63,902 nucleotides of DNA, filler included, from Lenisia limosa (GCA_001655205.1; 15 parts of 15 records of this genome joined end to end with filler, not necessarily neighbours in it), one strand, 5' to 3'. Counted from the first letter of the whole stretch, positions 1,586-58,782 are shown. The notes: generated by a model not told the origin, from the letters alone. Made by a program: numbers and translations.

Positions 1586-1737
1586 CTGGGGGAAGAGGGT
1601 AAATTGGAATATTTATGACAAAAAAAGGCCAAAAGTAACTCCTTAAAATGAAGGAAATTTCAATGAAGAATATTGTCTTGGGAGAAAAATTTGGAAAATT
1701 TATGAAGCAAAAAAAGCCCAAAATCAACTCTGTAAAA

Positions 1738-1837
1738 NNNNNNNNNNNNNNNNNNNNNNNNNNNNNNNNNNNNNNNNNNNNTTAATTAATTAANNNNNNN
1801 NNNNNNNNNNNNNNNNNNNNNNNNNNNNNNNNNNNNN
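1738..1837. other. Artificial 100-bp scaffold-joining spacer (44 N + TTAATTAATTAA + 44 N); first of 14
   Basis: The identical 12-mer, with stops in all six frames, sits inside N runs at 1782, 3118, 4721, 22468, 23920, 27597, 36094, 40117, 41768, 44639, 56801, 58443, 59894 and 61867. Neighbours across these spacers are not biological. Confidence 0.97.
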
Positions 1838-1839
1838 TC

Positions 1840-2309
1840 ACCACCACCACCACCCGTGGATGAACGCAAAGAGACCCCGGTTGACGTTCTTGAGGGCATC
1901 TTGCCTTCCCATCTGCTGGTGTCGGATTCGGATTCGGTGAGGTGTTTGTGTTGTACTTAGGGCTTCCCTACGGTCCGAAAATCGAGATTTATCGAGGATT
2001 TATCGGGAAAATTCAGTCTTTTTGGGACCGTAGGGAAGCCTTACTGTTGCTGTTTAAAATAATGGGTGCATATTGATGTTGCTGATGTGTTTATGTGTGT
2101 TTGGGGGTTTTGTTTAATAAATTTTCTCGTTTTACTCCCCTATATAATACCCATATTGTTCCCAGTACGCCAATATTCTTCATCGAAATTTCCTCCGTTT
2201 TACTCCCTCTCCAGGACACGGACGTGGACGCACCCCCAGGTGAGCTGCCAGATAACTTCATTTTCCGCCCCTCCAAGCCACCGAAGGTTCAACCTGCTAT
2301 TGTGGGGGG
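1840..2309 (+). CDS. Two exons of an uncharacterised Pro/Asp-rich protein (partial)
   Basis: Exon ending ...LLVSDSDS|gtgagg, then ctccag|DTDVDAPPGELPDNFIFRPSKPPKVQPAIVG|gtatta (2215-2309), joined in phase 0. Confidence 0.6.
1958..2043. mobile_element. Family A MITE, CCCTACGG subfamily
   Basis: TAGGGCTTCCCTACGGTCC...GGACCGTAGGGAAGCCTTA is a 19-bp TIR with 1 mismatch. The same subfamily occurs at 3607, 4942, 18693, 38090 and 43117. Confidence 0.88.
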
Positions 2310-2529
2310 GTATTATATGAAGGGTTCCGTGCAATTAGTTTTACGAAGAAATTTATTGACATATCTAATTAAAGTGTCTCAAATTTTACATCTTCATATT
2401 TTGCAATTAGTTGTTCAATGAATTGCACGGAGACCAAATATATGGTAATATGGATATGGAGGGAGTACAATTGAATGATTCAGAATGGGAGAGGGGTGCG
2501 TGCAATGGTACACTTTAAAGCACGTTATA

Positions 2530-2780
2530 CTTCGAGTTGTCACGCATATCGGAACATTACGGTGACATCATCTTTTTACTACTTTTTACTAGAATTAAAC
2601 TATGGAGAATCATATCTGTCAAGATTTTGGGCATTTTGATGACAATTGTAATTGTTCTCTTATTTCAATAATAATTACCTTTGTTACACTTCTAAATCTA
2701 AATCACGAAAGTTGCGCTTGGTTATGGTTCTTTTTGTTCTTCAACCGAGCCAGGTTTCGGAACTATATCCTGCTTTAACA
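2530..2780 (+). repeat. Family F dispersed repeat (~250 bp), second copy at ~62250-62490
   Basis: Colinear blocks TTGTCACG.ATATC.GAAC..TTAC.GTGAC.TCATCTTTT, AATTGTT.TCTTAT.TCAAT, TC.ACCGAG.CA.GTTT..GGAACTATA.CC.GCTTTAAC occur in both places. Confidence 0.75.
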
Positions 2781-2890
2781 ACTCAGAATGCGAGAGACGG
2801 CATTTTTGGACTGAAAAGCGTGCCACCCCCCAAGTAGGTGATATTCTGCCTCATTTGCTTTTGATATGGCAATATCTTAAAATGCTCTTG

Positions 2891-2967: not shown

Positions 2968-3261
2968 TATGATGTTTATTTTGGTGATTTTTTTTTGTAA
3001 TTATCAAACCCCAACCCCCATCACTATTTAATTTTACATTTTTCACGAATAATTTTCTTTTTTTTTTATGCGANNNNNNNNNNNNNNNNNNNNNNNNNNN
3101 NNNNNNNNNNNNNNNNNTTAATTAATTAANNNNNNNNNNNNNNNNNNNNNNNNNNNNNNNNNNNNNNNNNNNNGAGTGGGAGGGTGGAGGATGATTGAGT
3201 ATATATTACCTGTGGATATGGGGAGTTAGTGTTAGTATTGTTATTCGGGGTTTCAAAATTT

Positions 3262-3411
3262 GTGATGGGATGTGGTGCTACAGAAGAGATTGACCTGGGC
3301 TTTGTTTGTTTTATTGTTCTCAACCCTCGTGTGTTGTCAGCCAACAGAATTGATTTTGGGCTTTTTTTGTTTCATATATTTTCCATTCCTTCGTTTACCC
3401 CCCCCCCCCAG
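3262..3411 (+). repeat. Family C splice-site-anchored repeat, full-length acceptor copy
   Basis: GTGATGGGATGYGGTGCT..GAAG.GAC.TGGGCTTTGTTTGTTTT.TTGTTCTCAACCCT.GTGTGTTGTCAGCCAACAGA.TTGATTTTGGGCTTTTTTGTTTCATA.ATTTTCCA..TTTTAC(C)nAG, ending at AG 3410-3411. Confidence 0.9.
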
Positions 3412-8159: not shown

Positions 8160-11100
8160 AAAACTCCAAATTTCATCTGCTCCGGAGAACCTGGAACATT
8201 GAATACATGACGCGACGTAATAATATAAAGGCCTCCTGTGGTCTAAAAAACTGACGTATCGGTAATTTTTGAAGTCATAACGAGAAACTCAGCAATGTCT
8301 GGAAGACCAATTAATATGTACCGTATTTGATACACTTTGATGGGTGTTTGTAATTGTAATTCATTTCTATATTCCATTACAAGATTAAAAAATCTCATAA
8401 TTTTTAAAGGATTTGGATACTGTAGATTTCGGAATCAATAGTGGATTTTAGAAACATATAGGCATAGTATTGATTGTTTAATAATATATGCATTGATTTG
8501 AGATTAGGGAAATAAATATACACTAGGACCATACTTGAGGCGTGTTGGGGAGACGTATGACCGAATCAGATAGAATTTTTACGGATCTTCGAAAATTTCT
8601 CAATATTTAGTTTTTAAAAAGTGTTACGACTCTCAAGAAAGTCTATCAATCAAATAGTTTCCACACTAGCTATACTTTTCCTTACCGATATTGCCGGCCC
8701 AAGACACGTCAGAATCTATGCCGATTCGGGCATAGAGCAGAGATCCATCCAGATACTCCTAATATCATTAAGGGTGTAAATTTCTCTCGTAATACACAGA
8801 AGGTGTATTCGATTTTGTCAATCATATTATTTATTTTCCTATTGGTATCATTTTTATGAAATAATGCTATATTTAATTTCGATCAACATATGATTAATGA
8901 ATTATTGTCGCAAACATGAAGCTCTTTTCGTAGCTGTGGTAGAATTTTCTGCATCTCAACAGCGGTTATACATGCCTGAACTGTTAGGATTATGATACTT
9001 AAATTAATTCCACAAAACTATGTTTTCCACAAAGGCTGATGTAGTATATTATAAAGTATCAATATATTTGGAGAGTTTTCTGCTCTGTTTGTAATGGAGT
9101 GAAGCCCCAACAATTAACCTCTGTTCATACCTTGACTGCATGATCAGGCACGCGATCCAAGGCGTTCCAAAAGGCAACAATGCCATCTCCTAGATACCTG
9201 GGAGGGGGAAAAAGGGTAATTGGGGGTAGAAAAACTGGGGTATTATGAAAACTGGTGAGGGGAAAGCTAAATTGGAATATTTATGAAAAAAAGCAATTTC
9301 AAATCAACTGTTTCGGCTAGCAACACACACGGACTGAAAAAAACAAAACAAAAGGTGGGGAGGGGGCTAAACAATATTTCATGAAATAATTTCAATTTGA
9401 CACTAACCCACTCTCCCATGGTGCCAGAATTGGCCAGAATCAGCGATGTCATGACATCAAGGTACTTAGATAGCACTCGGAACAATGACGACGGAATCAG
9501 TCCTTTATGACAGTGAACAGGAAATATATGTGATTATAGGCGCAACCAATGATTAAAGTGTTGTTGAAATGTTTATAATATGAAAAGCATAGAATGTGTG
9601 TTTCACCCAATTAGTACTTGTTAAATGAGTTTTTATGTGAATCAAACGAAGGTTTGCCGTTTTGTCAAACCTAAAAAGTGACAAATTTTCACCCCTTTTC
9701 TCACTCTCAGACATGGTGGTGAACTCCTGTAAGTCACTTGAAAGCACACTTGATAATCAGTAACAAATAAAATGATGTGTTAATGTTGTATAATAATATC
9801 TGAGATTGTCAAAAGTTTAATTCAAATAAAACCAATGGCAAGATCACACCTTCTAGAATAAACACTCACCATGCACTTTCCTGAAAATGAGCTTATTATA
9901 TATCGATATTCTCTTGTATTTCATAATATTTGGCAAGTATATTACATTATATATAGCTATATCATATAAATATGAGGGTTAACGCACTATATTCATATAT
10001 TCATGTCCCCCCTTACGTAACCTGGACTTTGTTGACGCCAAGCTAAATACAGTAAGAAATATTTTAGTATTATGGCTTCCCTACTTCCCCAGAAAAGACT
10101 GATATTTTCGATAAATCCTTGTAAATATCGATATTTCACCAGTATATTTCGAAACTTATGGATACGACAATTTATAAACCATGAAATGATTTGAACTATT
10201 TGTCAATATTATTTGTATCACACTTTAGTAAACTATTCTCACCATTGAAACATATTCAAAACATGTAATATAGTGACTGTAATATTGACAACTGTTTCAA
10301 AACCCATCGCAAAGGCTTCATTTCGGTAAGAAAAAAAGACTAAATTTGATATATCCTCGAAAACGATCACTGTTTTAAAGGTCTTTTCTAACCGAAGTGA
10401 AGCCCAACACATCGCTTTCACTATATTTCATACCTTGGCGTTTTCTGGCGAATTAACAATCATATGAACAACGGAACGCGGGATGTACTTCGAAAATGAC
10501 TCCTATTAAGTGAAACAACTGATCTTGAGGGAACACTACGGCGCATTGACTTGGTATTCTGATGAAAAAGCTGGGAGTCCCATTATTTACACTAAAATCC
10601 CCCAGATAATGATATCTGAAAGTTCTGGATTTTCCATGGGTACCTGTTGACGGGTAGTACAAAACAACTGTTTTATATTCCAAGTAAATATCATTTCTGA
10701 CTGAGGCTCATAGCAGTATTGAGTGAAACATTCAAGGAAAAATTATAATGAAAGCTGCATATCAAAACGTTAATTGATTGTCCCAAGTCAAAATTGCTTG
10801 GAATTTCAATTAAGACTACCCACAAGGTTTTTTCTCATCGAAAGGAAGGCATCGTTCAGTTCGTGTATCTCTTTAATGTAAGAGACCTCACAGCACTTTT
10901 GTGTCCTAAATCATGAATTGTCCTCCAAGCACTCCAACGGATTGTCCCTCTAAGCACTCTCGTAAGTCATGACTTGTCCTGCATTCACTCTCAACTACTA
11001 TTTAAACACATTTTTGGCACCTCTTTAGTTTTGAGATTACTCACAAACTAGATCCCAACAAAACAGGCTTACTTTAACTTTCGATCAACTTCCGCGAAAT

Positions 11101-14100
11101 TCAACCTTCTGACTTCTTCCACCCTAGTTTGTCACAATTTAACATTTCACTACACTCCTATTGCAAGTTGAAATTGTGCTCGCTTTAATTCAAGTATTTG
11201 TATCAAGAAAATATACATCACAAGATAGACCCACCAAATTATTCACAAATGTAAGCTAGTAATATACCAATACCAATATATACTAGAATATAATATTATT
11301 TCAAATAATACTACTAATAATATTTAGTTTCAAGAAATCATTAACTGAAAAACATTATCTATTTGTTACATTCACCGACGTCCACCCCCACTGTTTACTC
11401 AGGTACTTAATGGGGACTGTCAGCTTCATTGTCAGAACCACGGCAATAGCTCCGAGTACTACAACTAAAAATAGCCCAACAAGGAAGATTTTCAGCCTGT
11501 GGTGTGAAATTTTAGAGTTTTCAATAAAACTCTTCAAAACGGTAGTCCAGCTATTTTGTCTTATTGCCTTTTAGAAAACAATATTTTCAAAAGCAAAAAC
11601 CTATCAGACCTGAACGAGTACAGTTCCGCTTCTAGATTAGAGAGTTGGGAATCAAACTAAAAGGTCACCATAAATAGTGTTTCATGGTTTTTTATTATAT
11701 GATATAATCAATTTTGATTATCCTCTCAAATTGAAACTGTATTAAAAAGTAAGTCACTTTATGTTGAAATTCAAATAGAAAACAAGTATCAAGATATTTT
11801 AATATTGTCCTCATAAATGTGAACTCTTCTTTAATTTGGAATAGTGGAATTGGTAACATATACAGTTGTACAGAACCACTCATAAATTAAGCATATTATA
11901 TATACTATATGGTTAATCATCATGAGGTATAATAGTTATCCATGAACTATTGCCAGATATGGAGATTTATTAACGTTGTACATGGGCAATAATCAGTAAT
12001 ATCTTTTAACTAAACGTTTTATTTGTTCAATTAGATGCACTTCCAAGTAATCATGCCCATTTACTCAGGCCAAACTAACATTTGCTCGGAATTCATCCAT
12101 TTGGCTGATGAACAATACGCTCAACTCCACTTGGTTGAAATTCAGTGTGTAGAACTAAAAAAGTAATGTGACGTGAAAACAAAACAATAAAGAATTACAT
12201 TTTATAAATTATTGTTTGCTGCATGAGACGTTGGAAATGTCTACATATTGAAAGTGTATCACCATACATAGTGTGTACATGTAATTACACATGCTATATG
12301 ATATGTATACTGTTGTATCATAGTAGTATTACATAAGGAAATTGTTGAAAGATAGAGTGGGGGTTTTTCATATCATGGTAGGTTTGCGAACATTTATAAT
12401 ATTCTTCACCATAAAATAATGTTCAACTCAACGAAACTATAATACCAAAGCAATTATGTGTATAATTAAAGCTTTCTACGGTTCTAAAAAAATACAATAT
12501 GATATATTGATAAATATTCTATAAATACTGATAATATATCCGACCGAAAGGAAGCAACTTGAAATATATAACAATGAAAAAAACAAGGTTGTATCTGGGC
12601 AAATCCGTCCACACCATCACGCTTATAAAAGATATTGGATTATAGTAGAATATTAATTCAGCAACTTGATATTCTAATATATAAAGGCCAGAAATAACGA
12701 ACAGAGATCATTGTTTCCGAGTTGATAGTTGTGACATTGTTCATTCGCAGAGTAGCAGTGTCGTTTGTTTGTATGTGTTCAAAAAGCTGAATGGTGATGG
12801 GGAGTAGTTGAGAAGGGACGAAGTGAGAGGTAAATCTAATGTGGTAGTATTTTGGTATATTATCCTGAATATATAGCTAAGATTTGTATTTTTGTGTTCA
12901 TAATAGCGGCTTACTCGAACAAACGCATCGCTAACTGAAGAGCTTGATGTTTCATTGTATAATTTCAACTATAAAAATCAGGATTATTAGAAGACACACA
13001 GTAGCCAAGAGGAATATGAGGTCAACTTTGTGAAAGTATTATAAACTGTTTTAAATCAATTTTTATGTCATTGAGTCAAATATCGGGTAACAATTGGTGT
13101 TGTTTGAAATGATGCAACAACTGATAAGGTAATTTGTTATCGACAAGACAATCAAAAAATCTGTTGAGCCTGGAAAAATTGACCACAACCAACCAAATCT
13201 GAATCAAAATGATGGGGATTGCTGGTGTAAATCAGAATCATATCGTGATCATATGCCTGGATGAGGGTTGAAGAGTGTTTTCGTACCTACATGAATGAGA
13301 AGACAGTCACTTCCAGCCGTTTTAAGACAACTTCACATTATACAATAGTTGTATAAATGAGAACTTTTTTGGACCAATGTACACCTTGATATGATATACG
13401 TGTTCTTAATCAATTGATTCTTTGCTTTTGTAGTTATTAAGCTTCCTTGGTCATAGTACCAACTCGAATGTTTTTTGACAACACATGCCAATGATAAGAT
13501 AAGTTTCACATCAATTATCCTGACTCTTCACAATTTAAACCTCCACTCACATCTATGTCATTTAAAATCCGCTCAATGTTGACGTGAATATGGTAAACGT
13601 ATTTAATTGCTCCAATTCCTACTACGGTCAAAAAAATCTTTCAATTTTTGTTGTGAATTGATTCAAATAAATGAACCACAAGATTTAAGAAATTATCTTC
13701 TTCTATTAATGGCTTTCTTCAGGGTGTTTAAAGATTCAATCTTGAAAATCCACCCCCCAACTTTGCAAAAAGCATTATTATATTGATATTATTCAAGAAA
13801 ATGATAAATATACTTTGAATATTAGCTCCTGTTTTCTTTACTACCCAACCTGAGCGATTATCTGGGGTTGTAGACCATTTTCCAACTGAAGATCCTGACC
13901 AATACGTGTCACCTTCCTAAAGGGGCAGATTATATGTGTCACCTTCCTAAAGGGGCAGATTATATGTGTCACCTTCCTAAAGGGGCAGATTATACGTGTC
14001 ACCTTCCTAAAGGGGCAGATTATACGTGGCACATTTAGATGATAAAACTCTATTGACAGTTACCTTGAAAAGGGAACACACTGGAATACTGTATAATATC

Positions 14101-40053: not shown

Positions 40054-40297
40054 CTAGGGGGGGGGGGGGGGGNNNNNNNNNNNNNNNNNNNNNNNNNNNN
40101 NNNNNNNNNNNNNNNNTTAATTAATTAANNNNNNNNNNNNNNNNNNNNNNNNNNNNNNNNNNNNNNNNNNNNAGCCCAGGCCAGTCGCTTCTATAGCACC
40201 GCATCCATTCACTTAAAATTAGAAATTTGAGAAACAAAAAAAAGCTAAAAATCAATTCTGTAATCAACAGTGTTGATTGTATTATACATGTCCCTAC

Positions 40298-41629
40298 AGT
40301 GAGATAATCGTCAATGATATCAAGCACGCGGGTGAACTGCGAGAAGATCAACACTTGATGGCCATCCGCTCTTAGACGGGGAAGGAGCTTGTCAAGTAGA
40401 ACCATCTGAAAGAAATTAGTTTGAACTTGGCACAGAGAAAAAAAGGGGGGTAGTTCCTGAGAGTAATATATGAAAAAATGTTTATATTACACAATCTAAA
40501 TTTGGTAACCAATTGGTAAATCTGGCTGTTAGATGTGTTCGGTGAAATCTGAATGTTGTCTGAACCTGTAACTATATAAAATACATCTAAACACCCCAGA
40601 ATCCAAAATCGCAACCAACCTTTCCTGATGCTGAGATGAGAAGTTTAAAGACTTCCTGGGGGGTGGCACTGACAGGGAGTACTTCCTCTTCCACTCCCTT
40701 CACCTGGGGTGGTGGGTAAAAAGAAGGAAATTTCTGTGAAGAAATTGGCGTTAAGGTACTGATCACGAACCGAATAATCTGAAACTCCAAAAAAACAAAA
40801 GAAAACACACAAACTGAAAATGGAGAAGTTATGAAACAAGAATACCCAAAATCAATTCTGGGGGAGAGGATTTGAGCAACGTAACCCCCCCCCCAACCAA
40901 GAAAGGATGGTTACAGCACTTTCTGAGTTCCATTACAATGTTGTTGAGACTTGGGGCGGCCACAGACTTTTTTGAGTTGAGGAACACCTAAAAAATCAAT
41001 CGAAAATAGAAAAAAAATACAATGAAAAAAAAACAAAAAAAAGAGGGTTTGCCAAAACAATAAAAACAAAGTAGGACTCCGCTTTCGGTTCTATAAAATG
41101 GTGAATTCTCGTTAAACCGTCGATAAATATTTAAAATGTAGTGAAAGGAGGCACTAATAATAATTATAAATAAATCAGAGCCCTTGATTCTCAAATTTAA
41201 CGACCAACACTGATAAAAATCCCCCCATGCCAAGATTCTTGTTGTAAGGCAAATGATTAGGTGCCCTAATACAATATTATATAATAATTTCAAATATCAC
41301 CACCACCACCACAGCAAACACCCCTGCACCCCCACGCTAAGATTTTTGCGGTAGAGAGCGGAGTAGTATTTCTTTTGCAGACTTGTCAGCTCAACTTCAA
41401 TGACCGTTTCTTCCTTTGCAGCAATACTAGGGGGGGGGGGGNNNNNNNNNNNNNNNNNNNNNNNNNNNNNNNNNNNNNNNNNNNNNNNNNNNNNNNNNNN
41501 NNNNNNNNNNNNNNNNNNNNNNNNAATTTCATAGTTTTACACACACACACACACACACACACCTTTTTTCCACGTCATCCTTCATTCGCCTCAATAAGTA
41601 GGGACGAAGCTCTGTATGCAACTTCTCAA
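40298..41629 (-). CDS. CHD-type SNF2 chromatin-remodelling ATPase (internal fragment)
   Basis: [103 protein letters not shown] across five phased exons. The KEETxIEVELT signature resembles CHD6-9/kismet. Confidence 0.93.
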
Positions 41630-44443: not shown

Positions 44444-44501
44444 CTGGGGTGGTTGAGTGTAGTTGGAAATTTGTAAAACAACAAAAAAGCCTGAAATCAA
44501 C

Positions 44502-44594
44502 TCATCATCATCACCATCACCATCATCATCATCATTAATATCATCATCATCATCATCACCATCACCATCATCACTATCACCATCATCATCACCA
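44502..44594. repeat. (CAT/CAC)n microsatellite, intronic, running into a gap
   Basis: About 30 CAT/CAC units upstream of the first visible FN3 exon. Confidence 0.9.
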
Positions 44595-44894
44595 NNNNNN
44601 NNNNNNNNNNNNNNNNNNNNNNNNNNNNNNNNNNNNNNTTAATTAATTAANNNNNNNNNNNNNNNNNNNNNNNNNNNNNNNNNNNNNNNNNNNNGTAATA
44701 TCATACAATGTGTTTGGGGGGAGGGAGTTCAGAATGATACAGTAGACGGGGGTATATGTTTTAAAAAAACGTGGGGTCAACAAAGTATGTTTTGTGTTTT
44801 TTTCAAAATTCGAGTGTTACCTGGCAGTAGATATGATTTTGGGCTTCTTTTTTTTTTGTTTCATAAAATTTCCAATTTCACCCCCCCCCCCCAG

Positions 44895-47800
44895 AAGAAT
44901 CTGACAGGTTNNNNNNNNNNNNNNNNNNNNNNNNNNNNNNNNNNNNNNNNNNNNNNNNNNNNNNNNNNNNNNNNNNNNNNNNNNNNNNNNNNNNNNNNNN
45001 NNNNNNNNNNNNNNNNNNNNNNNNNNNNNNNNNNNNNNNNNNNNNNNNNNNNNNNNNNNNNNNNNNNNNNNNNNNNNNNNNNNNNNNNNNNNNTTGGGCT
45101 TTTTTTGTTTCGTAAATTCTTCAATTTTACTCCACCTCTCCCCAGGCGTTCTTTATGGCAAGAAGGTCGCTGGGTTGTCACGAGAACTCTTCCCCAGACC
45201 AGGCTACCCACTGGAACTCTCAGGTGCATACTGACATGGTAGGCCGAACACCCGTGCCGTGTGTTGTCACCCAAACAAGTTGATTTGGGCCTTTTTGTTT
45301 CATAAATTTTCCAATATTCCAACCCCCTCCCCACCTAGAAGCAGAAAACAATCAGACAGAAAGCCCACGTGCGCTTGTTCGAAGCCCTTCAGCGTGACGC
45401 TTCTTATCCTCTGACTCACTGGTATGGGCTGTTTTTTTTAACAAGATATATATACATTAGAAATCTAGGGAAACAAATAAAATCATAGGGATACCATAAA
45501 CAAATTGGCTGTCATTGGTGTATTTTTTAGGGCTCGGTGCAAGTAACTGGAAAACAAAATTGCCAAATTTGAAATAAGGCATAGAGCCAGAAACCATTTT
45601 CAGACACTTTAATTTCTCTTTTTTTTCAATTGATTTCTTCAAAATTAATTGCACGGAGCTCTATTTTTTGTTTTGTTTTTGTTGGTTGTGGTTGGGGATT
45701 TGTTTTCGTAAATATGATATGTATATCCATTGGTGCTTTGTTTTCCAATGATTTTTACACCCCCTCTCCCTAGGTATCTATTCAACAATGCCATGCCCAA
45801 TATTGCAGCCCCCCTCTACGACCTCCCCCCAGTCCCCTTTTTTACCGGGGTGATGTTATCACTTATTTCCCCCCGCTGTGTTGCTAGGTTGGGGGGGGGG
45901 GGGGGNNNNNNNNNNNNNNNNNNNNNNNNNNNNNNNNNNNNNNNNNNNNNNNNNNNNNNNNNNNNCCTAATTGAATAAAACTTGGATTCCTACACACACA
46001 CATCCATACATATACACACTCACTTCCAGATATGAGGTGAACTTTCGTAGTGAAGAGGAGCTAAATGCCTTGCAAAACTCCTTCGTTGGCAAGCCCATTC
46101 TCCTTGCTCTTGCAAGAGAGGTGAGGGGGGGCTACTATTAGGGCTTATATTCGGTTCGATAAATACTGGTAAAATATCGATAGATTTCGAGGATTTATCA
46201 AGAAATTCTGTCTTTTTTCAAACCTAAGCGAAGCATTAAACAATTTACTTTGCTTCAAATTTCCAAGTTTTATTTCTATAAATTGTTTTTGAAACAACAA
46301 AAATGTATTTATCGAAAATAAAAAACCATTTCTGAGGCACGCAGAAAGCTGTGTGCACAGAGTTGCAAGGCAAGTGATTGGGTGAATTAATGTTATACTT
46401 CCAATATCTCATGGTGTGGATGGCTTCTGCCAGATACATCCTTATTTTTTTTACCATTGCTATATATTAATTGCACCGAGTCCAAGAACTTCCTTGCTCC
46501 TTCTTTAATAAGCTTAATTTACTATTTTAGGAACCAGTAACCCCTGATATGATCAAAGCCCTTGTACCCGTGATATACAGTGGGAAATTACATTTTATTA
46601 CATTGCTAATTATATGTAGTATTTCTGATTTACCGTGGGTATATTTTATTTTATATACCGGTATTACACAAATTCTAGCCAACATACAAACATATGTAGT
46701 ATTTGTGATCCTGTGGGTTTTTTTATATGATAGCCAACAGAGTTGAGTCCGGTTTTTTTTTTTTTTTTTAAATAAAATTNNNNNNNNNNNNNNNNNNNNN
46801 NNNNNNNNNNNNNNNNNNNNNNNNNNNNNNNNNNNCCCAGGCCCACGGATGACGTTCCCCCTGCTGGTACTTATTGAAATGGCCCTTCTGTATACCGCAA
46901 TTCGTACCATGTCTACTGAGGAAAAATCAGCTCTTTTGGTGGGTGTGGTTATGTACAGTAACCGGGATAAGTCCTGGCACGTTTATTGAGCTTTTTCTTT
47001 TTTCCCACACTGACCGATAGAGCCAGACACGATTATTGAAATATTCTCAAAGTCCTAAATTATGTCGCTAATTCGAATTAATGTCATTAATTCAATTTTT
47101 CGTGACAGTCTTTTTTCAATGTTTTTTCATGATTATTTTCATTAAAATATCTTAAAAAACATTGTTTTTCTTTAATTTCTTCTCAAAAATACGATTATTT
47201 TCAGCACTACTACCGCAGTAGTTGTCTCTAATGCTGACTTTGACACCCAGATAGCGGTGAAACTTACTATATTGCTAAACACTTAGATATGCAAGCAAAC
47301 AAAACACATAAAAATGATATAACGTTTCCGCATTAGCACAACTTGGCTGAGGAGCATCTTCTCAAATCATAAGAAGAGAATAGTATCACGTGAAGTAAAT
47401 CAATTCCTTTGAAACCTATTTTTTTGCTTTCTTCGCCTGTCGATTTTCAGCCTTCTTTGCTTGACGCTTAGCTTTGTCAATCTTGTTTTGGGCAAGTGTT
47501 GCAGCTCCACCTGGGATATTAGTTTGTTTTGATATAGTTAGCCACAATATTTAACAAGTTACCTCTGTGAATTGCAGTTAGATGGCCGAGGATCGCACCG
47601 TTTGACGTGTCACATCCTTATTTACGTAGCGCTGCATCTTTGACAGCAGACTGTTGACAGATAACCTTAGTAATGTTTAAGCGGAAATTTTCTGAATTCT
47701 TTCAAAACAAACATCTCCCAGAGTCAATCAGGTAAAATAAATGGACACTGATGTGAGAGTCTGCAACCTGAAGGGTTACATTGATATTCTAAATATCTAA

Positions 47801-50800
47801 AAAAAAAAANNNNNNNNNNNNNNNNNNNNNNNNNNNNNNNNNNNNNNNNNNNNNNNNNNNNNNNNNNNNNNNNNNNNNNNNNNNNNNNNNNNNNNNNNNN
47901 NNNNNNNNNNNNNNNNNNNNNNNNNNNNNNNNNNNNNNNNNNNNNNNAGTAAGAATTTATTATATCATAATGAGGGGATATTGGGGTGAAGAGCGCTTGT
48001 CACGTGTCACTGCCTTCATACACCGCAAAAAGGCTTCAGCAGAGAAGTAGGCACTGCATCCAGAAGCTTCACCCACATCTCCATAATCTCTAGGAGCTCC
48101 GCTTTGTTGGTTTTGTCTGACTTAATGGTCTACTAAAATGCAATCAGAGACAAAAAAAAATAATGAATAGAACTGAGTCTTGTTTGTTTTTGACTTCAAA
48201 GTCTTATAGGTGTCGCCAAATAGTTTGACTGCTTCATTTTTGTACGGAACCATCTCAGTAGGGAAGGATGACTCGAGAGTTTCAAATGCTACTTCAATTA
48301 GTTCATGTGCGTAATATGTATCTATCCTGTGGTATCCCTATGTATTATTTGCCTGTATCCCTTGATTAAAATTTCTTAATATAATGATTTGCTCACTCCT
48401 TAAAATAGAAATGTCATTGCCTACCAAGGTCATTATTGTCATCTAGTCGGTGCCTCAGCGGTGACTTGAATCTTGATCAGCTCCTCGGCTGCAATAGCAA
48501 CACCATAGGCCTTGATAGAAGCCTTGGACTTGCATCAGGGGATGACAGCTTTGATGAAGCAAAGGTGACTTTTTTCAGGATTCTCACACCAGCATGCCAA
48601 AGACGGGCCATGATCAAAGTGCTTTCGGGCTGTAATCAATTAAAGGAACTTGCCAAAAAAAGAATGCGAGCATAAAGTGAAAAAATTTCGCGCGAGTGTG
48701 GCGCTCAAAAGTTGAAATTTTCGAGTTCAAGTTTGCTGATCTTGCCAAAAATGGAAAATTTTGATAGCTTTTTTTCTTTATTTCTCTTCATAAATCAATA
48801 AAATGTGAATATCTAAGAACTCTAATACAGTTTTGAAGGGTAATAGATGATTTTGGGACCGTAAATAATTAACGGCACTAATTCGAATTAGCGACATAAT
48901 TTAGGACCTTGAGCATCTAGTGTAAAAAAAATGTTTTCTATTTTTGTCGTTTCCTGTTATTCTTGGCCTACTTGGGTTGTTGTACAGGGGAGGGGCATTG
49001 TCCTTGCTTTATTTCCCATCGCGATGTATTATTCGTATGTGCCCATTTTCCACCCCCACCCCTCAATTCACCCGAAACGGCTTTATTTTTTATTTATTCA
49101 ATCCCATGTGTGTCTTCAAATGTTAAACCAACAGAATTGATTTTGGGTGTTCCGGTTCATAAATTCCCCCTCGCCCATTCTTCCCCAGTTCTTCACCCAT
49201 TCAGCCGGCATGTTCGGCGGTTGAACAGTTTATTGATACAGACAAACTTGAGGAATCCGATAAGTTTGTGGGGTAAATCTTTTGGAGCTTTTCGTTCGCT
49301 GACAAACGACATGTAAAATAGCGATATTTATCGTGAATTCAGTCTTACGGCTCCGGGTATTTACTTTTTTGAAGAATTTTTTTGTCAAAAATTGAAATTT
49401 AAGTGTCTGAAATTTTGCAATTATTTTTTCAATTAATTGCACGGAGCCCTCCTTTTTTGATACCGAAAGTAAAACTCAAGAATATGCTGAACGGGTGATT
49501 GTCGTCCATCATGTACATATAGTAACTAAATTTCGGCTTGGCACCATACCAAGTATATCCCTAGCATCTGAGCCGACTCCCCCTATTAATGAGGATTTAT
49601 TGTGAATTCAGTCTTTTTTGGAACCGAAAGTGAAGTTCTATAGCATATTTGTTCCATAGACCTTTCCCCTTTCATCAGCGTTTTTTATTTTTTGTTTGTT
49701 TGGAGTTTCAGATTATTCGGTTCGTGATTAGTTCCTTTATGCCAATATTCTTCATTTAAATATCCTTCGTTTTACTTCCCCCCCCCCCCAGCCTCTNNNN
49801 NNNNNNNNNNNNNNNNNNNNNNNNNNNNNNNNNNNNNNNNNNNNNNNNNNNNNNNNTGCAATTTGGCTACAAACCCTCTCATGACGTTACGTGGGGGCCT
49901 GGTGAAACGTATAAGCAAAGAGTGAGGGGGGGGGGTGTCAAAGTTGTATATAAAATGATATTATTTAAAGCAGGATCTCAACTGGGAAATGCCTCGGATG
50001 GATTTGGCTCGGTGTTGCTATACGGCTCTTTCATTTGTCTTCATTTTTTACAGCATATTCCGTTCGGATGACAACAATTGCATCATTTCTTTCTTGAAAT
50101 TACCTACTGTACAAATTAGACTTCCGGCCTTATATTCAGAGTTAACATCTTGAACATGGGCAAACGTGTGCTATCGGGGTTCTCTCCTTCTTTTTCATAA
50201 TCACCAATACTCAGAAACTCGAATTACACATATTTTACTATCGTATAATAGATATAAAACAAACGGTATAAACAAAGGGTGGGGGGTGCATTGATGGAGA
50301 GGCTTAAGTTGGATATATTTTGAAAAAGGTTCAATAACGTATAAACACCATAAGTGACATAATAAGGAAGAAGAGAGGGAAGCTCTAAACGTTATTCAAA
50401 GTCAAAATACACAATAGATATAATGATATGACATATTAACATTTATGTTGTCAACTTGTTGTTTTGAATTTAAAATTCTTTACAAAAAATAGTAAAAGTG
50501 TGTTCCATTTTTTTTTTGTTTTTTTCAAAAGAATTTTATTTGTTGTAATATTTCAGTCAAAAGCTGCCCAGGAAGCGCCTTTGAAGTTCATTTCCGAGCC
50601 CAAATCCAGACAAGCAACTGTGGGTGGGATAAGGTGTCATATTTAAATGTTGCTTTTTTGAACACATTGAATTTAAATATAGGGATACAAGAACACATTG
50701 CATATAAATAAATATAGTAATGCATTGCTCCTAGTATCACTGGACCCCAGTGATCTTTCATTTTCACAAAAAATGCTTCATTCAATCAAAAGTGGCGTAT

Positions 50801-52020
50801 TATGATTACATGTTATTTTATTTGTACACCAGGATAAGTCTTGACCTATTTGCTCTATGCTTAATCGGTCAAGAATTATCCCGGTTGCTGTACATACAGT
50901 ACATATTGAACATTTCCTATCAGTGTACAGAGTTGTTAGTAAATGATATTATCCAATATCGCTTATAGCGTAATGGTTTTGGCCAGATATTACCTTGTTG
51001 AATATTACTCATCTCAGTATATCTTATGACGTCTTTGCTAATCTTCCCAGGCCCCGGTGTTGGTTGAAGATGAGTCTTTTCAGGTCCCTACTTCTTTTCC
51101 TGAGCCAGGTGGGGGGATTTTATGGTAGTAATTATTAAATTGGTGTTGTGTAACTCATCGAAAAATTAATTTCAATATTTGAAGTGGGACGTAGTGTAAC
51201 GAGAACCCTATTCCAGACACTTAAATTTCTAATTTTGTCAATTAATTTCCTCAAAAAAAAATATTATACGGAGGTAACACAAATGATTGGGTGAATTAAT
51301 AGTATCTATTAGCGTGATGGTTTAGACGACTTCAGATACAACCTTTTATTTATTTTTTTCGCTCAGATATAACCTTTTTTTTTCTCATCTCTACATGTTT
51401 ATTGTATATAGGGCTTCACTTCGGTTCGAAAATGATTGATATAACATCGATAGTTTTCGAGGATTTATCGCGAAATTCAGTCATATTTTGATCCGAAGTG
51501 AAGCCCTAATTATATAATGCTGGCACGACAGATCAAATAGTATATTTCTGACCTGATTCGTCAGAGTGGGCAGTTCCGACAACCCTCTACCGGCATTCCG
51601 ACTACGTGCTCGAGGGCTACAACTTCTGGATAATGGAGGTCCTTAAACGTCGCCTTTCTGATTCGGAAAAGGTCATTAACAAAGACCTGATTAATGTTGC
51701 TGGTGGGGGGGAGTGTCTTTTGTAGAACTTCACCTTCGGTTCCAAAAGACTAATAAAATGAGGATTTATCGAGATTTTAGTTTTTTTTTGACGTCTTCTG
51801 GGTTTTTTTTTTTATGCTACAGTGTGTTTTACTATTTAAATTTTCGCGATGCTGTATTTAAATCCTTTTAGGTTTCTCAAATGTTTAGCCAACAGAGATG
51901 ATTTCTGGGGCTTTTCTACCAATTTTTCATTTACACTCACCTCCCTAACCCCTGTTAGCTTACGTAATCAAAATGATTGAAACACGCCCCGCTTTTGTGA
52001 AAAGTTTGTGGGAAGCTCTT
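44895..52020 (+). CDS. Long multi-exon gene of unknown function (partial)
   Basis: Phase-consistent exons include 45146-45238, 45339-45421, 45774-45887, 46030-46120, 51045-51108, 51563-51702 and 51959-~52020 (..KQKTIRQKAHVRLFEALQRDASYPLTHWYLFNNAMPNIAAPLYDLPP..). It hosts the 1.87-kb TIR element in an intron. Confidence 0.6.
45239..45338 (+). repeat. 100-nt intron composed almost wholly of family C
   Basis: GTAGGCCGAACACCCGTGCCGTGTGTTGTCACCCAAACAAGTTGATTTGGGCCTTTTTGTTTCATAAATTTTCCAATATTCCAACCCCCTCCCCACCTAG between two phase-0 exons. Confidence 0.8.
47046..48913 (-). mobile_element. 1.87-kb DNA transposon with 47-bp TIRs and a decayed spliced ORF
   Basis: 47046-47092 (CTCAAAGTCCTAAATTATGTCGCTAATTCGAATTAATGTCATTAATT) is the inverted match of 48867-48913 with 4 mismatches. 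Internal minus-strand exon-like pieces carry in-frame stops. Confidence 0.8.
49690..49791 (+). repeat. Family C2 acceptor-anchored repeat
   Basis: TTGGAGTTTCAGATTATTCGGTTCGTGAT...GCCAATATTCTTCAT..AAAT.TCCTTCGTTTTACT(C)nAG. Related copies at 40704-40800(-), 2165-2214(+), 1655-1680(-) and 37575-37625(-). Confidence 0.8.
51409..51508. mobile_element. Family A MITE (~85-100 bp, TA|GGGCTTC...GAAGCCC|TA), best-preserved copy
   Basis: TIR TAGGGCTTCACTTCGG...CCGAAGTGAAGCCCTA. Other full or partial copies at 1958-2043, 3607-3692, 4942-5040, 10071, 10312-10407, 12467-12557, 18693-18789, 36766-36810, 37875-37912, 38090-38188, 39268-39311, 42946, 43117-43213, 46139-46238, 49590-49640, 52606-52689, 58499-58592 and 59249. 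Confidence 0.9.
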
Positions 52021-54570
52021 TTGATATATAGTGACCGGAAGAAGTCTTGACCGAGATCTTATATCTGAATGAAGGATACTCAAACTTGATTGATAAAACT
52101 CTTTCTGACTCGTTTTGTCGGTACTAAATATCGTTCACTACCCATCCCACAGTTTAAAAGTGGAATGGAGGTAGCGCACGATATTTAGTTCAAATATTTC
52201 AAAAAAATACAAATAGATCTTCAGTTTTGCTTCCAAAACACTGATAAAATATCGATATTTGTCGAGAAAGTGTAGTGAATTCTGTCTTTTTGTAGGGATC
52301 CGTGTAATTTATTGAAAAGTTAATTTCATAATTTGAAGTGAGATCTATTGAGATAGATAATCACCACACACTTTATTTCAAATTTTATCAAATACTTTCT
52401 CAAAAAATTAATTGCACGGAATCGTGCTTTTTGGATGCTCTATAATTAACAAATACCCTCACACTTATGTAGCGATTCGTGACCAAGTACCTCGTACCCC
52501 AAGTAAACCCATAGCGCCTAAGATGTCAAAAACTCCTCTTCCTAATCTACAGTCACTCATGTCCCCATTCACGTTTGAAGGGGGCAATAAAGATAGTCTT
52601 ATCATTAGGGCTTCTCTTCATTCGAAAAAGACTGATTTCTCGATTGGTCGATATCTTATTGGTAATTTTCGAACCGAAGTGAAGCCCTACTTATCTTTTT
52701 CTATACTCTGTCAATCAGCATCAAGTTTGTGTTATATTGATAGTAAGCTTTGTTTTCTATGTGATTATTTGACTTGAACCATACCACTTAGCCAAATACA
52801 CCGTTGTTAAATTCACACTTATACATTCTAACATAAAATGTGCTCTACTTCATATTACCTGAAGTCCTTAAAAAAAATTCTTTCTTTTTTGATAGCTATT
52901 TGATTATATCACACTGTTCATAAATATGTATTTTAAAAAATCAGAATTCGATTATTTATACGTTCAACATGGGGTAATCGCACTAACGTGAAAGAAACAG
53001 GATGCCATATTATATCACAAACTAACACTGCCTTTGACGATTGGGTTCCATCTTGATGACGTTGGCTGTAGTGGTTCTGGTGTAATTGAGAGATTTAAAG
53101 CAATCATTTACCTTTCTAATCATCAGACTGTCTGGGTAGTGGACTATCAAATTATATCTTTACCAATTCACCAGTTACCTCCCATTAACAGCTAACCTTG
53201 TCACTGATGATAGGTAGAACAACCTCAAATAGATACTTCTTCAACGCATGCTTCAAACAGACAGGTTTTTGAGGAATGAGGACATCTTTTTTCCCAAAAC
53301 CTTGATGAAAGATACCTGTGTGAAGGGATTCAGATGGAAATCACCACAATTTAGTATTCGATAAGTCCAGTGGACATACTTTAGATTATTCAAAGGCAAA
53401 TGACACTATTTGGCGGATCTATAGCGCGTATTGCTTCAACAATAACGTTAAAGGTTAGCTTACAGCCGGATGATTTATGCTGAACGGGTCTTAATGAAAA
53501 ATAGCATTGGTCAATGAATCAGTGCACTGCATGCCGAACTCATGGGAATACCTGAGCGGTGTTATTTTGGATTGCACGTGGAACTGTTTTTAACTGCACA
53601 GCTTATTATCCCATTCCAAGTTCTATTCATTGACGATGAAGTACACCGGGTTCCAAGGGATACTGACAGATAAGCAATGAGAAAAAAACAATAAAGATGT
53701 ATCTGGCCGAAGCCGTNNNNNNNNNNNNNNNNNNNNNNNNNNNNNNNNNNNNNNNNNNNNNNNNNNNNNNNNNNNNNNNNNNNNNNNNNNNNNNNNNNNN
53801 NNNATGATTGAGTCGCTGGAAGAACCGTTTTCTCGAGCCCTTAGTACCCGTCACGGGCACTCAGACTGTGACAGTCCTCGTTGTTTATATGCATCGTGTA
53901 GTCCCCGGCTAAATTGTAAAAAATCACATGTGTCTTTTGTCCCTTCAAAACTGTCAAAAACCAAGCGATTTGTTCTCTCCAAAAAAAATGTATCTGCAGC
54001 GTTTAAATTAATGTCCTGGTTCGAGATTTGGCATTGGTAAATAAAACAATCTTAGTGATACTCAATTTGACTGAGTATACAGCGACTGTTTTTGACATCA
54101 TCCTGTTTTGCCTTTCTTCATATTCGTTCTTTCTTTGACTTTACTTTGTTTTGTTTTCTTAAAAAAGTGATTTTCTTATTTATTGATTTTCTTATTTTTC
54201 ATACTATATATTTGAAAAGTAATATGGGTTTTAACGTCTGAATTTCAGTTGTAGTAGGGCAAATGATTTCTATCATCTAATCTATCACTCAAGTTAAGCG
54301 TAATGGTGTGGATGGATTTGGTCATATCCTACCTTTTTGTATTTGTAATTTTTGAGTTAATTTAATATTAACCAATTTTAGACCGCAAGAGGAATTCCAA
54401 GACCCCCGAAAAGTGAGCTGACTATTTTGAGGAATTCTGAAACGTATCATCTCATTCTTGTTCTTAAAAAAAACCCATTAGCAAATCGTATGAATATCTG
54501 AGTATGAACGGCTTTGTCAGACCCATTTTTCACTTCTCTTTTGTCTGACAAGTTCTAGTACTGTGAACAG

Positions 54571-54870
54571 TGCCTACATACTCCAAAATACCTCAAATGG
54601 TGCAAGGACTGTAAAAAGGTGGGAACAGGGTTTGTTTGGGATTCCTTCCCGATTTGTAAAAGAGGTAAAATGTCAAATATATATCATTACATGTATATCC
54701 ATAGTATATATGTATGTATATATTAATAATAAAAAAAATCCTGTACGTCTACCGTTTGATTAGCAATGTAATAATATACGCTAAATTAACCACTTTTTCA
54801 GGTAAGATACTGTGGGAGGGACTGTCAATTCAAAGCTTGGAAGGAGCATAAGAAAGTTTGTGGTTTGTAG
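54571..54870 (+). CDS. C-terminal MYND-type zinc finger exons
   Basis: CLHTPKYLKWCKDCKK|VRYCGRDCQFKAWKEHKKVCGL* (TAG at 54868-54870) matches the MYND C..C..YC...CQ...W..HK..C consensus. It may be the 3' end of the gene starting at 44.9 kb. Confidence 0.85.
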
Positions 54871-55503
54871 GTTTAAAAGAGTTCTGTTTTGTGTTAGTTG
54901 TATTGGTTGGTTGTTGTGTATTTATTAGTTTGGAGGCAAATGCATATGTGTGTAATACTTGTTTTGTCTGATCCCAGAGGGGGGGGGGTGCAAAACGGGT
55001 GCGATAAGTATTAATACTATATCTCCTTGACGATAATAGCAGAGTTCTTAAGAAAGAGAATTACCAATTAATGAATTTCAAGTCGATCGCACTGGCTAAC
55101 TCACATTCCCATTCTGTCTGTGTTGGAAGTTTTTGGAAGGCTTTGGATAACTGTGTTTTTTCTCTACATCTGTACTTTTTTCGTCTACATCAATTTGGGG
55201 TGAGATGTTTGCATTGATTATTCCTGAAGACAATAGTTGGGTTTCTTACATCATGTTTCTGATATGTCCTCCCGCCCCATCTCAAATTTAATTGTGCAGA
55301 ATCGGTGAATTTATATCGAGTCATTTTTCAATTTAACCGAAAATCAACCTCTCAACAAACGTTAACGCATGAGCCATCTCTCCTAACAAACTGTTGAATA
55401 CCATAAATAATAGCAGAAGAAGACGATTCCTTTGATCCTCCAAAACTAGAACAAGACAAGAAAAACAAACAAAAGAAAACAATGTCAAAAAGACGAGCCG
55501 AGA

Positions 55504-56531
55504 TCAACAGATTGTCAATTCATCGCGATTAGAGATAATTGCGTCACATGTATGCAAGTGATAAAGAGTGGCAGCGGAAACGAAAATATGCCAAATAGCA
55601 TGGCTGCCAAAAAGGTCGAATTTCCCAGGGTACAGCCGTTCGGGGATCCGAGATATGAAGAAGAAAACTCCGATCAGATAGAGAACTGCAAAAATGAGAC
55701 GAAAGTCAATATCGTTACCTCAATATTGGGGTAAAACACCCCTCTCCCTTACATAAAACATGTCCGCATAAGGCAAAAATATCCCAATTTTTGTGTTTCA
55801 TTGGAACAATACCCCCACACCCCCGTATTGCTGATTGAATAGCGAAAAACCCAAGACTATCTCACCAAAATCGTAATTTTAATCTCAAAATCGATAGACA
55901 ACGTAAATTGGTGATGTTAATGATAATACATTGCGAAGCATTGCTTCTTATACCTTCTCCACTTAACATCCCCTCCCAAAAATAAAATAATAATAATAAT
56001 AAAAAAAGTGTTACAAGATTTTTCTACTTAATCCCCCCCTCTGGGCTTTTTTTGTTTCATTCCAATTGTACCCCCCCCCTCACCAAACATGCCGTATATT
56101 CGAAGGTGAAGCCATGAACCAAGGGGAGTGGACTCGTAGAAAATAAAAAAGTGTATTGATGGAAGTACCCCAGATCCTAGAGGGGGGGGGGGGGNNNNNN
56201 NNNNNNNNNNNNNNNNNNNNNNNNNNNNNNNNNNNNNNNNNNNNNNNNNNNNNNNNNNNNNNNNNNNNNNNNNNNNNNNNNNNNNNNNNNNNNNNNNNNN
56301 NNNNNNNNNNNNNNNNNNNCGAGGGCTGATAACAACAAAAAAAAACAAATGGGGGGTGGGGGATTGGGATTTGATGATAAAAAAAATAATAAAAGATCTC
56401 AAAATCAACTCTGCATAGTAAAAATCTTATCTTCCAACAACAAGTAGAAATACAATAATATCTTTCCACAATCTAATACCCCCAACCAGCAAGAAGAATA
56501 AATCCGAATGTCCGGAACGAGTCCAAAGTGA
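55504..56531 (-). CDS. PAQR (adiponectin receptor / haemolysin III family) membrane protein, 3' part
   Basis: FRTFGFILLAGSGVLPSIH..; LYLIGVFFFISRIPERLYPGKFDLFGSHAIWHIFVSAATLYH..TIC*, with the diagnostic RIPER..PGKFD..SH..WH motif. Confidence 0.92.
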
Positions 56532-56857
56532 CTGGTTGGCGACTACGAAATTAGAAACTAATAAAAAAGCCTTATTTTCCGTGAAGCGGTAATGGTTGTT
56601 GGCGAATACGAAATGAAAAATGTACAGGCTCATTTTCAGTTGCAAACGTACGTATATGACCAGAACAAGTCTTGACCGATTTTCCTTAGGAAATCATCTT
56701 GTGAATCGGTCAAGACTTATTCCAGTCACTGTTCATAATCAAGCCCCCCCCCCCCCNNNNNNNNNNNNNNNNNNNNNNNNNNNNNNNNNNNNNNNNNNNN
56801 TTAATTAATTAANNNNNNNNNNNNNNNNNNNNNNNNNNNNNNNNNNNNNNNNNNNNA

Positions 56858-57170
56858 TCTGAAACGAAAAGATGCTTCTCAACTTCCTCGAAATCGATGA
56901 CATGGGACGTCACGTCTTGGAAGGCATTGTAGAGCTGTGCTTGGTAAGAAATTGAAATAGGGGGAATTGAATTTTCAGGGCTACTTTCCTTTCCAAGCTC
57001 AAGTAGTCATCACCGATCAAATGAACAAGAGCTAAAAGCACGCATAATGAAGGTATTTACAAAAGATGATATCATAGAATATGATCCCACTTTTTCTTTT
57101 CCTTCGCTTTTGTTGTTTGGTCGTTTGGTCCTCTTCTTGGCTCTTCTTGGCTTCTTGGTTCTTTCTGTTT
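56858..57170 (-). CDS. Exons of an unknown gene, divergent from the gene at 57512
   Basis: GT-AG bounded coding-like segments: ALVHLIGDDYLSLERK|LYNAFQDVTSHVIDFEEVEKHLFVSD, plus an upstream K/E-rich segment. Confidence 0.4.
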
Positions 57171-57511
57171 AAAAATATATTGGCTCGCAATAAATAACTT
57201 CTTGGTTAACTTAGCTCAAAATAGCCAAATTGAGTCCCCCCCCCCCACTTTTATTTTCATCATTTTTGTGTTTGCCAGGTGGCCAGGTGTTTGCTGTATC
57301 GTTGTGTATATGTGTATATTTGTATATTAATTAAATACTGTATAAATGCTGCAAAATACTGTGATATTTCTCCTCCAACAAAGCCCTCAAGAGCACCATC
57401 TCACTCCACTTTCTGTCATTGTCCTCTCGTCCTCTGTTGGCCCTTAGGGGCAAGAGAGCGGAAGGTGAGCAAAATAAGAAGGCTCCATCGTATTTCTTCT
57501 GAGAGACAACC

Positions 57512-57625
57512 ATGTCTGCCAAGATCATCTCTTCTGTGGAGATTATTCCTCATGGTGATGACGCTCCTTCCCCTCCCGAACCGATTGTCCTTCTCAAGGG
57601 AGACTCCAGAGCTATTGGTCGCAAG
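57512..57625 (+). CDS. First coding exon, possibly an FHA-like N-terminus
   Basis: ATG 57512 gives MSAKIISSVEIIPHGDDAPSPPEPIVLLKGDSRAIGRK|gttggc. The terminal IGR resembles FHA strand 3, which is weak evidence. Confidence 0.4.
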
Positions 57626-58782
57626 GTTGGCGTCTGAAAATAACATCAGTCAAATAAATATCCATTCATAGCCAACAAAATTGTCAGAGGCTTGATAGAA
57701 ATGGTTTTCTTACTTTCAGTTTTATTTGCATTTTCTTGGTTTTTATTAGGGATAACAGTCGTACCAAGGCCGTTCACGCATTTATTAGGGATACTGATGA
57801 TATCTCAATCATTTACCTTTGATAACTCCTTGCATACAGCTTTCTGTGGACATACCCATAAGGATGAGATTCATGAATGAAGACATATTACACTCTCAAC
57901 TCTTGACATATTGGTTTCCAATTACTACAAACATGCTTTTCGGTTTGTTTGTTTCATAAATTTCTACTAGGAGTGATGGGATGCGGCGCTGTAGAAGCGA
58001 CCTGGGCTTTGTTTGTTTTGTTGTTCTCAACCCTTGTNNNNNNNNNNNNNNNNNNNNNNNNNNNNNNNNNNNNNNNNNNNNNNNNNNNNNNNNNNNNNNN
58101 NNNNNNNNNNNNNNNNNNNNNNNNNNNNNNNNGTATATATATATATATCTTTTTGATTTCCGGTGTTGAAGACTGGGAGCCTTTTTGGCTCAAGGATTCA
58201 TCATATGATCTAGTTTAATGATGGCAATATCTCGTTCTGTTGACTCGTTCACTTTTTCATATTTTGTTTTCTGGAACCAGTTGTTTGTCCTGGGTGTTAG
58301 TTTTGATGCCGCTTATGCCACATCACTGGATTCTGTTCACCTTGCTGCATTTTTCACACTTATTAACAAATGATACTGTGCGTTTTTAATTGCATTTCNN
58401 NNNNNNNNNNNNNNNNNNNNNNNNNNNNNNNNNNNNNNNNNNTTAATTAATTAANNNNNNNNNNNNNNNNNNNNNNNNNNNNNNNNNNNNNNNNNNNNTT
58501 CACTTCGGTTCGAAAAAGACCAGCAAAATATCGATAGTTTTCGAGGATTTATCGAGAAATTCGGTCTTTTTTCGAACCGAAGTGAAGCCTTACACTGAAG
58601 GGAGTAAGCCGTATTCTAGTCTAATCTTGGAAACATAAGAATTAGGGCTATTAATTTAAAAATCATTTTCAAAATTGACATATTGCAGTAACGAGAACAA
58701 TTTTGTCAATTAATTTCCTCACAAAATTAGTTCTAATAAGAATAGGGATACAAAACAAATTACCATTGGCCTGACTTCTTAG

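Follow-up and report, generated by a model that had tools for sequence, protein, structure and literature searches.

An oligo(C)-tailed, possibly retroposon-like repeat with its 3' end towards exons at splice-site C/G runs in Lenisia limosa

What kind of sequence lies again and again beside the splice sites of unrelated genes, with its C-run end turned towards an exon? The question is raised by a 63,902-nucleotide (nt) stretch of DNA from Lenisia limosa (GCA_001655205.1; hereafter the window), in which a sequence-only reading had described a repeat, family C, and offered three explanations for it: an introner-like family with decaying terminal inverted repeats (TIRs), an element that targets splice junctions, or an extended splicing signal. 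The window consists of 15 small scaffolds with N-spacers between them, is ~36% G+C and carries intron-rich genes; all counts and tests of C given here were made within it. Two runs of the same study contain it as well, a DNA run (X1) and a poly-A RNA run (X2), and are therefore not independent of the assembly. Our tentative answer is that C is a non-autonomous retroposon-like repeat with an oligo(C) tail, which inserts at the C/G runs of splice sites; it probably extends existing introns and does not create them.

A first model of C gave 36 matches in the window at E ≤ 10. To avoid circularity the model was rebuilt as a core without the C-run, which gave 29 matches at E ≤ 1 (seeds of the model accounting for 11), while a 23-nt motif of C was matched four times in the window vs none in 100 shuffles. 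With the copies lying on separate, N-spacer-joined scaffolds, the description of C as a non-palindromic, ~140-bp repeat on separate contigs of unrelated genes is upheld. Pairwise identity of the copies is 60–93% (median 76%; 59 pairs). Two bins of X1 contigs with 3' parts of C have summed depths of 9,396 and 10,372 vs ~20–35 for single contigs, and C is therefore a high-copy repeat, summed depth not being equal to copy number. It is non-palindromic and polar, and shows neither the TIRs nor the fixed-length target-site duplications (TSDs) of miniature inverted-repeat transposable elements (MITEs) and DNA transposons. No stable fold was found (z +0.06 to +1.7), and Rfam gave no match at the gathering threshold, which a divergent head could escape. 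The 23-nt motif had no match in a scan of prokaryote genomes and one in viral contigs (L002); a single match in a metagenome contig (L001) was read as chance, as it lies after a stop codon, in a short inverted repeat of a gene-dense contig, with no further likeness to C. By eye, the TSP3 exon at 195–225 (−) has ~11 bases and flanking motifs in common with the 35 nt at the 5' start of C, probably by chance. No description of such an element was found in the literature searched, the coverage of which was incomplete and did not extend to supplements.

The junctions against which C is measured differ in their basis. Two proteins derived from transcripts, the deaminase P0001 and the MYND-finger protein P0121, agree with exons at 100%; a script resolved eight introns from the former and seven from the latter. 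Eight more were placed manually, with P0121 and with the record coordinates of an RNA contig in which the unlisted stretches (83, 142 and 290 nt) have the same lengths as sums of predicted exons, so that 23 introns have both ends fixed by transcripts. Among the junctions proposed earlier, 37365 and 37297 are fixed by P0001, 51958 by P0121, and 45145, 45338 and 45773 by pieces of the RNA contig with coordinate arithmetic; the acceptor placed at 49188 has to be moved to 49204, the position given by both P0121 and RNA length arithmetic. Open in-frame exon chains are the basis for 1586, 20676, 56177, 56083, 40704, 44352 and 44444, and the spacing of the CHD exons agrees with PDB chains. Junctions 3411, 4059 and 44894 are predicted only, and 9198 was placed by what we take to be a cyclase motif, the cyclase label being confirmed by neither Pfam nor PDB. 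The donor proposed at 18238(−) is ambiguous, an open plus-strand exon with an acceptor at 18258 fitting equally well; a codon test gives the plus-strand exon 5.1 vs −2.7 bits, this being a weak test that picks the true frame in 17 of 30 known exons. A protein search with the plus-strand frame 18226–18354 returned six repetitive proteins that look spurious. Four sites that had been listed as carrying C (4059, 45773, 1477 and 49922) have no core-model match at E ≤ 1 and are splice ends with a C/G run and, at best, a short motif like TTTTAC.

Six of the 23 transcript-fixed introns carry C, as does the intron ending at 45145. In all seven copies of transcript-fixed genes the 3' end of C faces the adjacent exon, sense before acceptors and antisense after one donor, which is the polarity that the sequence-only reading had reported; five of these copies are readable, ending 18–43 nt from the junction, and the other two enter a gap. 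If placement and orientation were random, the probability would be 0.11–0.12 per copy and ~2e-5 for the five readable copies, with a 45-nt distance threshold that was set after the distances had been seen. An uncorrected polarity test on 10 C copies in 31 introns gives p 0.006, while the same test on the control families B, F, G and H gives p 0.41, 0.78, 0.26 and 0.65. The further claim that palindromic MITEs follow no positional rule holds for polarity (Fisher p 0.26–0.78) and fails for distance in family B, where 6 of 11 cases have an end ≤ 45 nt from an exon (p ~0.02), without polarity. The stretch at 9.4–17.6 kb has no match to C or to a second family, D (described below), and holds four B copies and one G copy. 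Where sense and antisense C occur together, an exon lies between them and not an intron (37364–37298, 56176–56084). Because a donor read in reverse is, on DNA, the same as an acceptor, namely a C-run, a few bases and an exon, one rule at C/G runs would explain both orientations.

The individual copies in these genes illustrate the geometry. In the MYND-finger gene, a 3' part of C stands at the RNA-supported acceptor 45145 (45094–45145, +), and a 5'-truncated copy (45258–45338, +) makes up most of the RNA-supported 100-nt intron 45239–45338. Another 5'-truncated copy follows a C-rich tract and leads to the true acceptor 49204 (49079–49204, +; P0121 and RNA), a decayed 3' part stands at 51958, fixed by P0121 (51873–51958, +), and a 3' part followed by an N gap precedes the acceptor 46840 (46729–46840, +). 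In the deaminase gene, a 5'-truncated copy lies antisense after the donor 37297 (37209–37297, +; P0001), with a C-run and TTAC on both sides, a donor-like duplication; across the exon, at 37365–37632 (−), a 5' part of D, a 5' part of C and an N gap lead to C14 and AAG at the acceptor 37365 (P0001). The possibility that the antisense copy at 37297 arose by local fold-back of the upstream copy was rejected by eye, the overlapping parts being unlike. A short antisense copy likewise follows the PAQR donor 56083(−), with CCCCCCCTC on both sides (56033–56083, +). Hence both well-placed antisense copies have the donor-side run repeated beyond their far side.

The anatomy of C is consistent with the same picture. 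Of 20 readable copies, 18 have their 3' end at columns 121–134 of the 134-column model; at 37365, 46840 and 56177 the 3' part lies hidden in an N gap. The 5' starts range from column 2 to column 101 (25 copies; seven at columns 2–6), so that C combines a fixed 3' end and simple tail with variable 5' truncation, as do retroposons that lack long terminal repeats (non-LTR retroposons) and short interspersed nuclear elements (SINEs). Which bases follow the C-run differs from locus to locus (CAG, TAG, AAG, TTAC, TCAC), and the splice dinucleotide is therefore likely to be the host's. With the by-eye copy at 61923–61939 added to the flank counts, and the matches 10–46 and 61208–61261 left out of all counts as doubtful, CCCC occurs in the 30 nt upstream of 9 of 26 C copies vs 4.9% in introns (p 2.6e-6); the controls have it in 2/31 (B), 0/8 (F), 0/12 (G) and 0/8 (H) copies. 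The runs themselves are a wider property of these introns: GGG lies within +3 to +16 of 16 of the 23 fixed donors, only one of the 16 having C, and the acceptor is C-rich in 12 of the 23 introns, largely without C. Many of the N gaps and of the scaffold edges also lie next to long C or G runs, for the most part where there seems to be a splice site.

Copies of C are often stacked, with one another or with family D, a ~105-nt sequence that is unlike C except in its last bases. C–D–C order is seen at 1586–1737 (−; 3' part of C, 3' part of D, 3' part of C, then acceptor 1586 on the TSP3 scaffold) and C–D order at 40704–40861 (−; 3' part of C, then D, then acceptor 40704 of the CHD gene). The C–C stacks lie at 40173–40261 (−; 3' part then 5' part, up to the scaffold edge in a CHD intron), 56177–56414 (−; 3' part, C-rich tract, middle part, N gap, then C13 and TAG at acceptor 56177) and 57926–58037 (+; 3' part then 5' half, into a gap). 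The five D copies are at 49673–49791 (+; followed by C12 and acceptor 49791), 40704–40810 (−), 2158–2214 (+; a 3' part that follows a weak C-like end within 2105–2214 and precedes a predicted acceptor), 1644–1680 (−) and 37577–37632 (−). All five, each of them a seed of the D model, point their 3' end at an acceptor or at a stack of C. The D bin has a summed X1 depth of 31,510, and D also occurs in RNA contigs of X2. In X1 contigs from other loci, ends of C are joined to D at four D positions (4, 2, 1 and 3 contigs), two of these joins having a linker with a C-rich tract and AG.

Further copies are of more varied quality. Full-length C occurs at 3258–3411 (+), where C12 and then AG precede a predicted exon and the last bases resemble the end of D; at 20541–20676 (+), at the acceptor 20676 of an in-frame exon chain, with C6 and AG upstream like an old acceptor; and at 18084–18228 (+), with a decayed tail, either antisense to the donor 18238(−) or sense to the acceptor 18258(+). 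A 5'-truncated copy follows a C-rich tract at 9198–9352 (−), its core ending ~70 nt before the AG at 9198, and another, with C12 and AG, leads to a predicted junction (44785–44894, +). Two copies missing from the sequence-only reading lie nearby, a 3' part before the predicted acceptor 44444 (44444–44503, −) and, at 44234–44308 (+), an antisense 3' part (44278–44308) after a weaker fragment, facing the predicted donor 44352(−). The remainder are a copy with an internal deletion and a decayed 3' end in a guessed host intron (22053–22134, +), a middle part up to a scaffold edge (22541–22601, −), a weak 5' part heading to a gap and a C14 run (42742–42779, −) and, by eye, a C12 run followed by a 5' start at a scaffold edge (61923–61954, −).

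We suggest the following route for such insertions. A nick in the G-rich strand of a C/G run would yield a G-run primer able to pair with the C tail of an RNA; reverse transcription would then copy a variable length of C onto the intron side, and the run would be partly duplicated, the exon-proximal C-run and AG (or GT and G-run) being kept so that splicing is unharmed. Old introns would thereby be lengthened by C and the sequence next to their splice sites replaced. For the reverse transcriptase and the nuclease we assume an unseen non-LTR partner as the source, and the C/G runs at splice sites may either pre-date the elements or be their relics. While anatomy and geometry are observed, the RNA intermediate, the nick, the priming and the partner enzyme are proposed. 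A number of observations count against this route. No reverse transcriptase or endonuclease family was found among the 57 of 164 stop-to-stop frames of the window that were scanned, no C-tailed transcript was seen, Rfam revealed no tRNA, 5S, 7SL or small nuclear RNA (snRNA) head on C, and the internal T-runs of C speak against transcription by RNA polymerase III. Seven 5' starts bunch at columns 87–93, and the scatter of starts could be explained by decay or by the sensitivity of the model. A C-run is missing from the 5' flank of 17 of the 26 copies; of the nine flank runs, two belong to stacked neighbours as their tails and one was counted from an internal match start. A locus-specific test for TSDs gives p 0.015 with the stack at 1644 and p 0.18 without it.

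The strongest competitor, possible if on the whole unlikely, needs no enzyme of the repeat's own. G-runs would stall or break, and the G-rich end would anneal to the C-run at the end of another intron, as DNA or as excised intron RNA, copy a variable length of it and rejoin, C and D being passengers. Such repair would give the same polarity, the same 3' anchoring and the same variable 5' length, and requires none of the reverse transcriptase missing from the scanned frames. The chimeras fit it: the copy at 3411 ends like D, in the D copy at 37577 the 3' half has given way to C, and the D copy at 1644 has ~30 nt of the end of C on both sides. In Caenorhabditis elegans, deletions at G-quadruplexes have one junction at the G tract and the other 50–300 bp away, with occasional templated inserts, although that work concerns deletions in a helicase mutant and not a dispersed repeat family (PMC4654259). 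Seven copies of C, moreover, begin at a common 5' start although their upstream flanks differ, and this points to a unit whose end is fixed. We regard it as improbable that C inserted at random, or is an extended splicing signal, and was kept only where it supplies, in sense, a pyrimidine tract or, in antisense, a G-run enhancer. Strict polarity towards exons would follow from such selection, as would an intron made up mostly of C (45239–45338), and MITE family B is also somewhat near exons; yet neutral copies in mid-intron and between genes should then be common, and there are none at 9.4–17.6 kb. Nor does selection predict the C-runs at 5' flanks; 17 of the 23 fixed introns lack C, and among the six that have it one carries the same sequence reversed at a donor, which leaves the proposal of an extended splicing signal weak. 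In mammals, as far as the consulted part of the source goes, selection depletes elements near exons (PMC3088655).

That C is instead the TIR of an intron-making element, decayed in the manner of an old introner, is very unlikely. The C-run beside AG, the antisense copies at donors and the many introns that are G-rich at the start and C-rich at the end speak for this explanation; however, none of 29 introns tested has C at both ends, and inverted end-to-end scores are no higher in C introns (8–17) than in other introns (10–20). No exonic TSD was found, direct repeats across the junctions measuring 1–3 nt in C introns and 0–5 nt overall, and the first 60 nt of seven acceptor-C introns are unrelated (scores 10–17 in 21 pairs). 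C introns range from 100 to 2266 nt, and the two orientations, where they occur together, flank an exon and not an intron. The earlier suggestion of an element that targets splice junctions comes close, the likelier target being the C-run or G-run tract beside the junction rather than the junction itself. Mis-joining by the assembler, through homopolymer C-runs onto a collapsed repeat, is scarcely credible. Gaps and scaffold edges do often lie at C/G runs, and several C 3' ends are in gaps; against this, C copies differ by 7–40%, and the copies at 49204 and 51958 are each covered without differences by an X1 contig (1195 and 2267 nt), X1 being possibly the assembly's own data.

Among known systems, the closest parallel in working, though membership is unproven, is that of simple-repeat-targeting non-LTR elements, as far as the consulted parts of the sources describe them (PMC3812793, PMC4640811). 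Waldo, Mino, Kibi, Koshi and Dong, all non-LTR elements, and the Micron MITEs target microsatellites; like them C would insert into a simple-sequence tract and, by inference, has in common with them a tail matched to its target, truncation at the 5' end and stacking in tandem (PMC3812793, in part). Unlike them it appears to use a mononucleotide C/G run, which is not among the targets in the portion consulted (PMC3812793) and which coincides with splice sites, and it is non-coding, no autonomous partner having been found in the window frames scanned. With SINEs such as Alu, whose poly-A tail pairs with a T-rich primer (PMC3812793, same portion), C shares a short, non-coding, polar body, a homopolymer tail and a variable 5' end; it differs in that the tail is oligo(C) and no tRNA, 5S, 7SL or snRNA head was found. 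In mammals, SINEs are depleted in the 100 bp next to exons, whereas C is concentrated there (PMC3088655, in part). Introners of Aureococcus, Micromonas and Symbiodinium and the introner-like elements of fungi are likewise repeats tied to splice sites of unrelated genes, but form a whole intron, often with TIRs or TSDs, while C, which can have either orientation, makes up one end of introns that are otherwise unrelated and shows no exonic TSD (PMC9860276, PMC12130899; from the parts consulted). The symmetrical stwintrons of Hypoxylaceae resemble C in having related sequence in both orientations near intron ends and no short exonic duplication, but place both inverted repeats in the same intron and are alike over whole introns, C never being at both ends (PMC8469720, in part). 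G-quadruplex breaks with templated inserts by polymerase theta share one junction fixed at a G tract and one variable junction, but yield deletions with occasional inserts and not a dispersed repeat family (PMC4654259, in part).

Several observations concern the host genes. Pfam- and PDB-type family searches and protein searches confirm the labels TSP3, PAQR (HlyIII), deaminase and SNF2/CHD, and do not confirm WD40, cyclase and beta-helix; the cyclase exon has no PDB or Pfam match. What had been called an unknown gene at 45–52 kb is a single MYND-finger gene at 44895–54870 (+), with at least 16 introns; P0121 is probably incomplete, because the RNA contig extends upstream of its start. The deaminase gene (36989–40054, −) has at least nine introns, and the named matches of one exon among the best 120, beyond its own transcript protein, are bacterial or given without organism; if the gene is of bacterial origin, all its introns were therefore gained. 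Two scaffolds at 23976–36049, with a gelsolin-family gene and an SH3 coiled-coil gene, lack families B, C, D, F, G and H; their introns are mostly short, yet G-run donors are present, and these scaffolds may belong to another compartment of the genome or to an organism assembled along with it. The gelsolin exon had no homologue in a word-indexed database, and a PDB search confirms the gelsolin family.

Other repeats are present too. MITE family B is palindromic (32 matches, e.g. 46139–46238, 51410–51508 and 38090–38185), with ends that we take to resemble those of hAT elements. Family G is in gene sense in six of seven intronic copies and family H in five of five, without end anchoring; copies of G/H lie at 46372–46444, 50921–50996, 51281–51345, 54256–54335 and 37741–37819. 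A tandem array of a 30-nt unit (~5 copies) occupies 13872–14051, and a broken frame at 30700–31000 (+), with a motif that presumably recalls Harbinger transposases and no Pfam match, adjoins a weak DEAD-helicase match at 31042–31590 (−).

Mobile elements are normally purged near splice sites, as reported in the consulted part of PMC3088655, and the known mobile elements at splice sites are introners, which create introns; splice-site-adjacent repeats can be taken for introners by mistake. If C has the nature proposed here, the oligo(C) tail and target would widen the known range of simple-repeat targeting, and the breaks of the assembly at intron ends would be explained. It would also add a third way in which mobile DNA relates to splicing, one where the C/G run is a safe landing site, old introns are lengthened and their ends renewed. 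In a bolder form, which we consider rather unlikely, C and D would be C-tailed retro-copies that rewrite splice sites, possibly templated by excised intron RNA, and would be both source and maintainer of the G-rich donors and C-rich acceptors of this lineage. Mobile DNA would then alter the splicing code of existing introns without making new ones.

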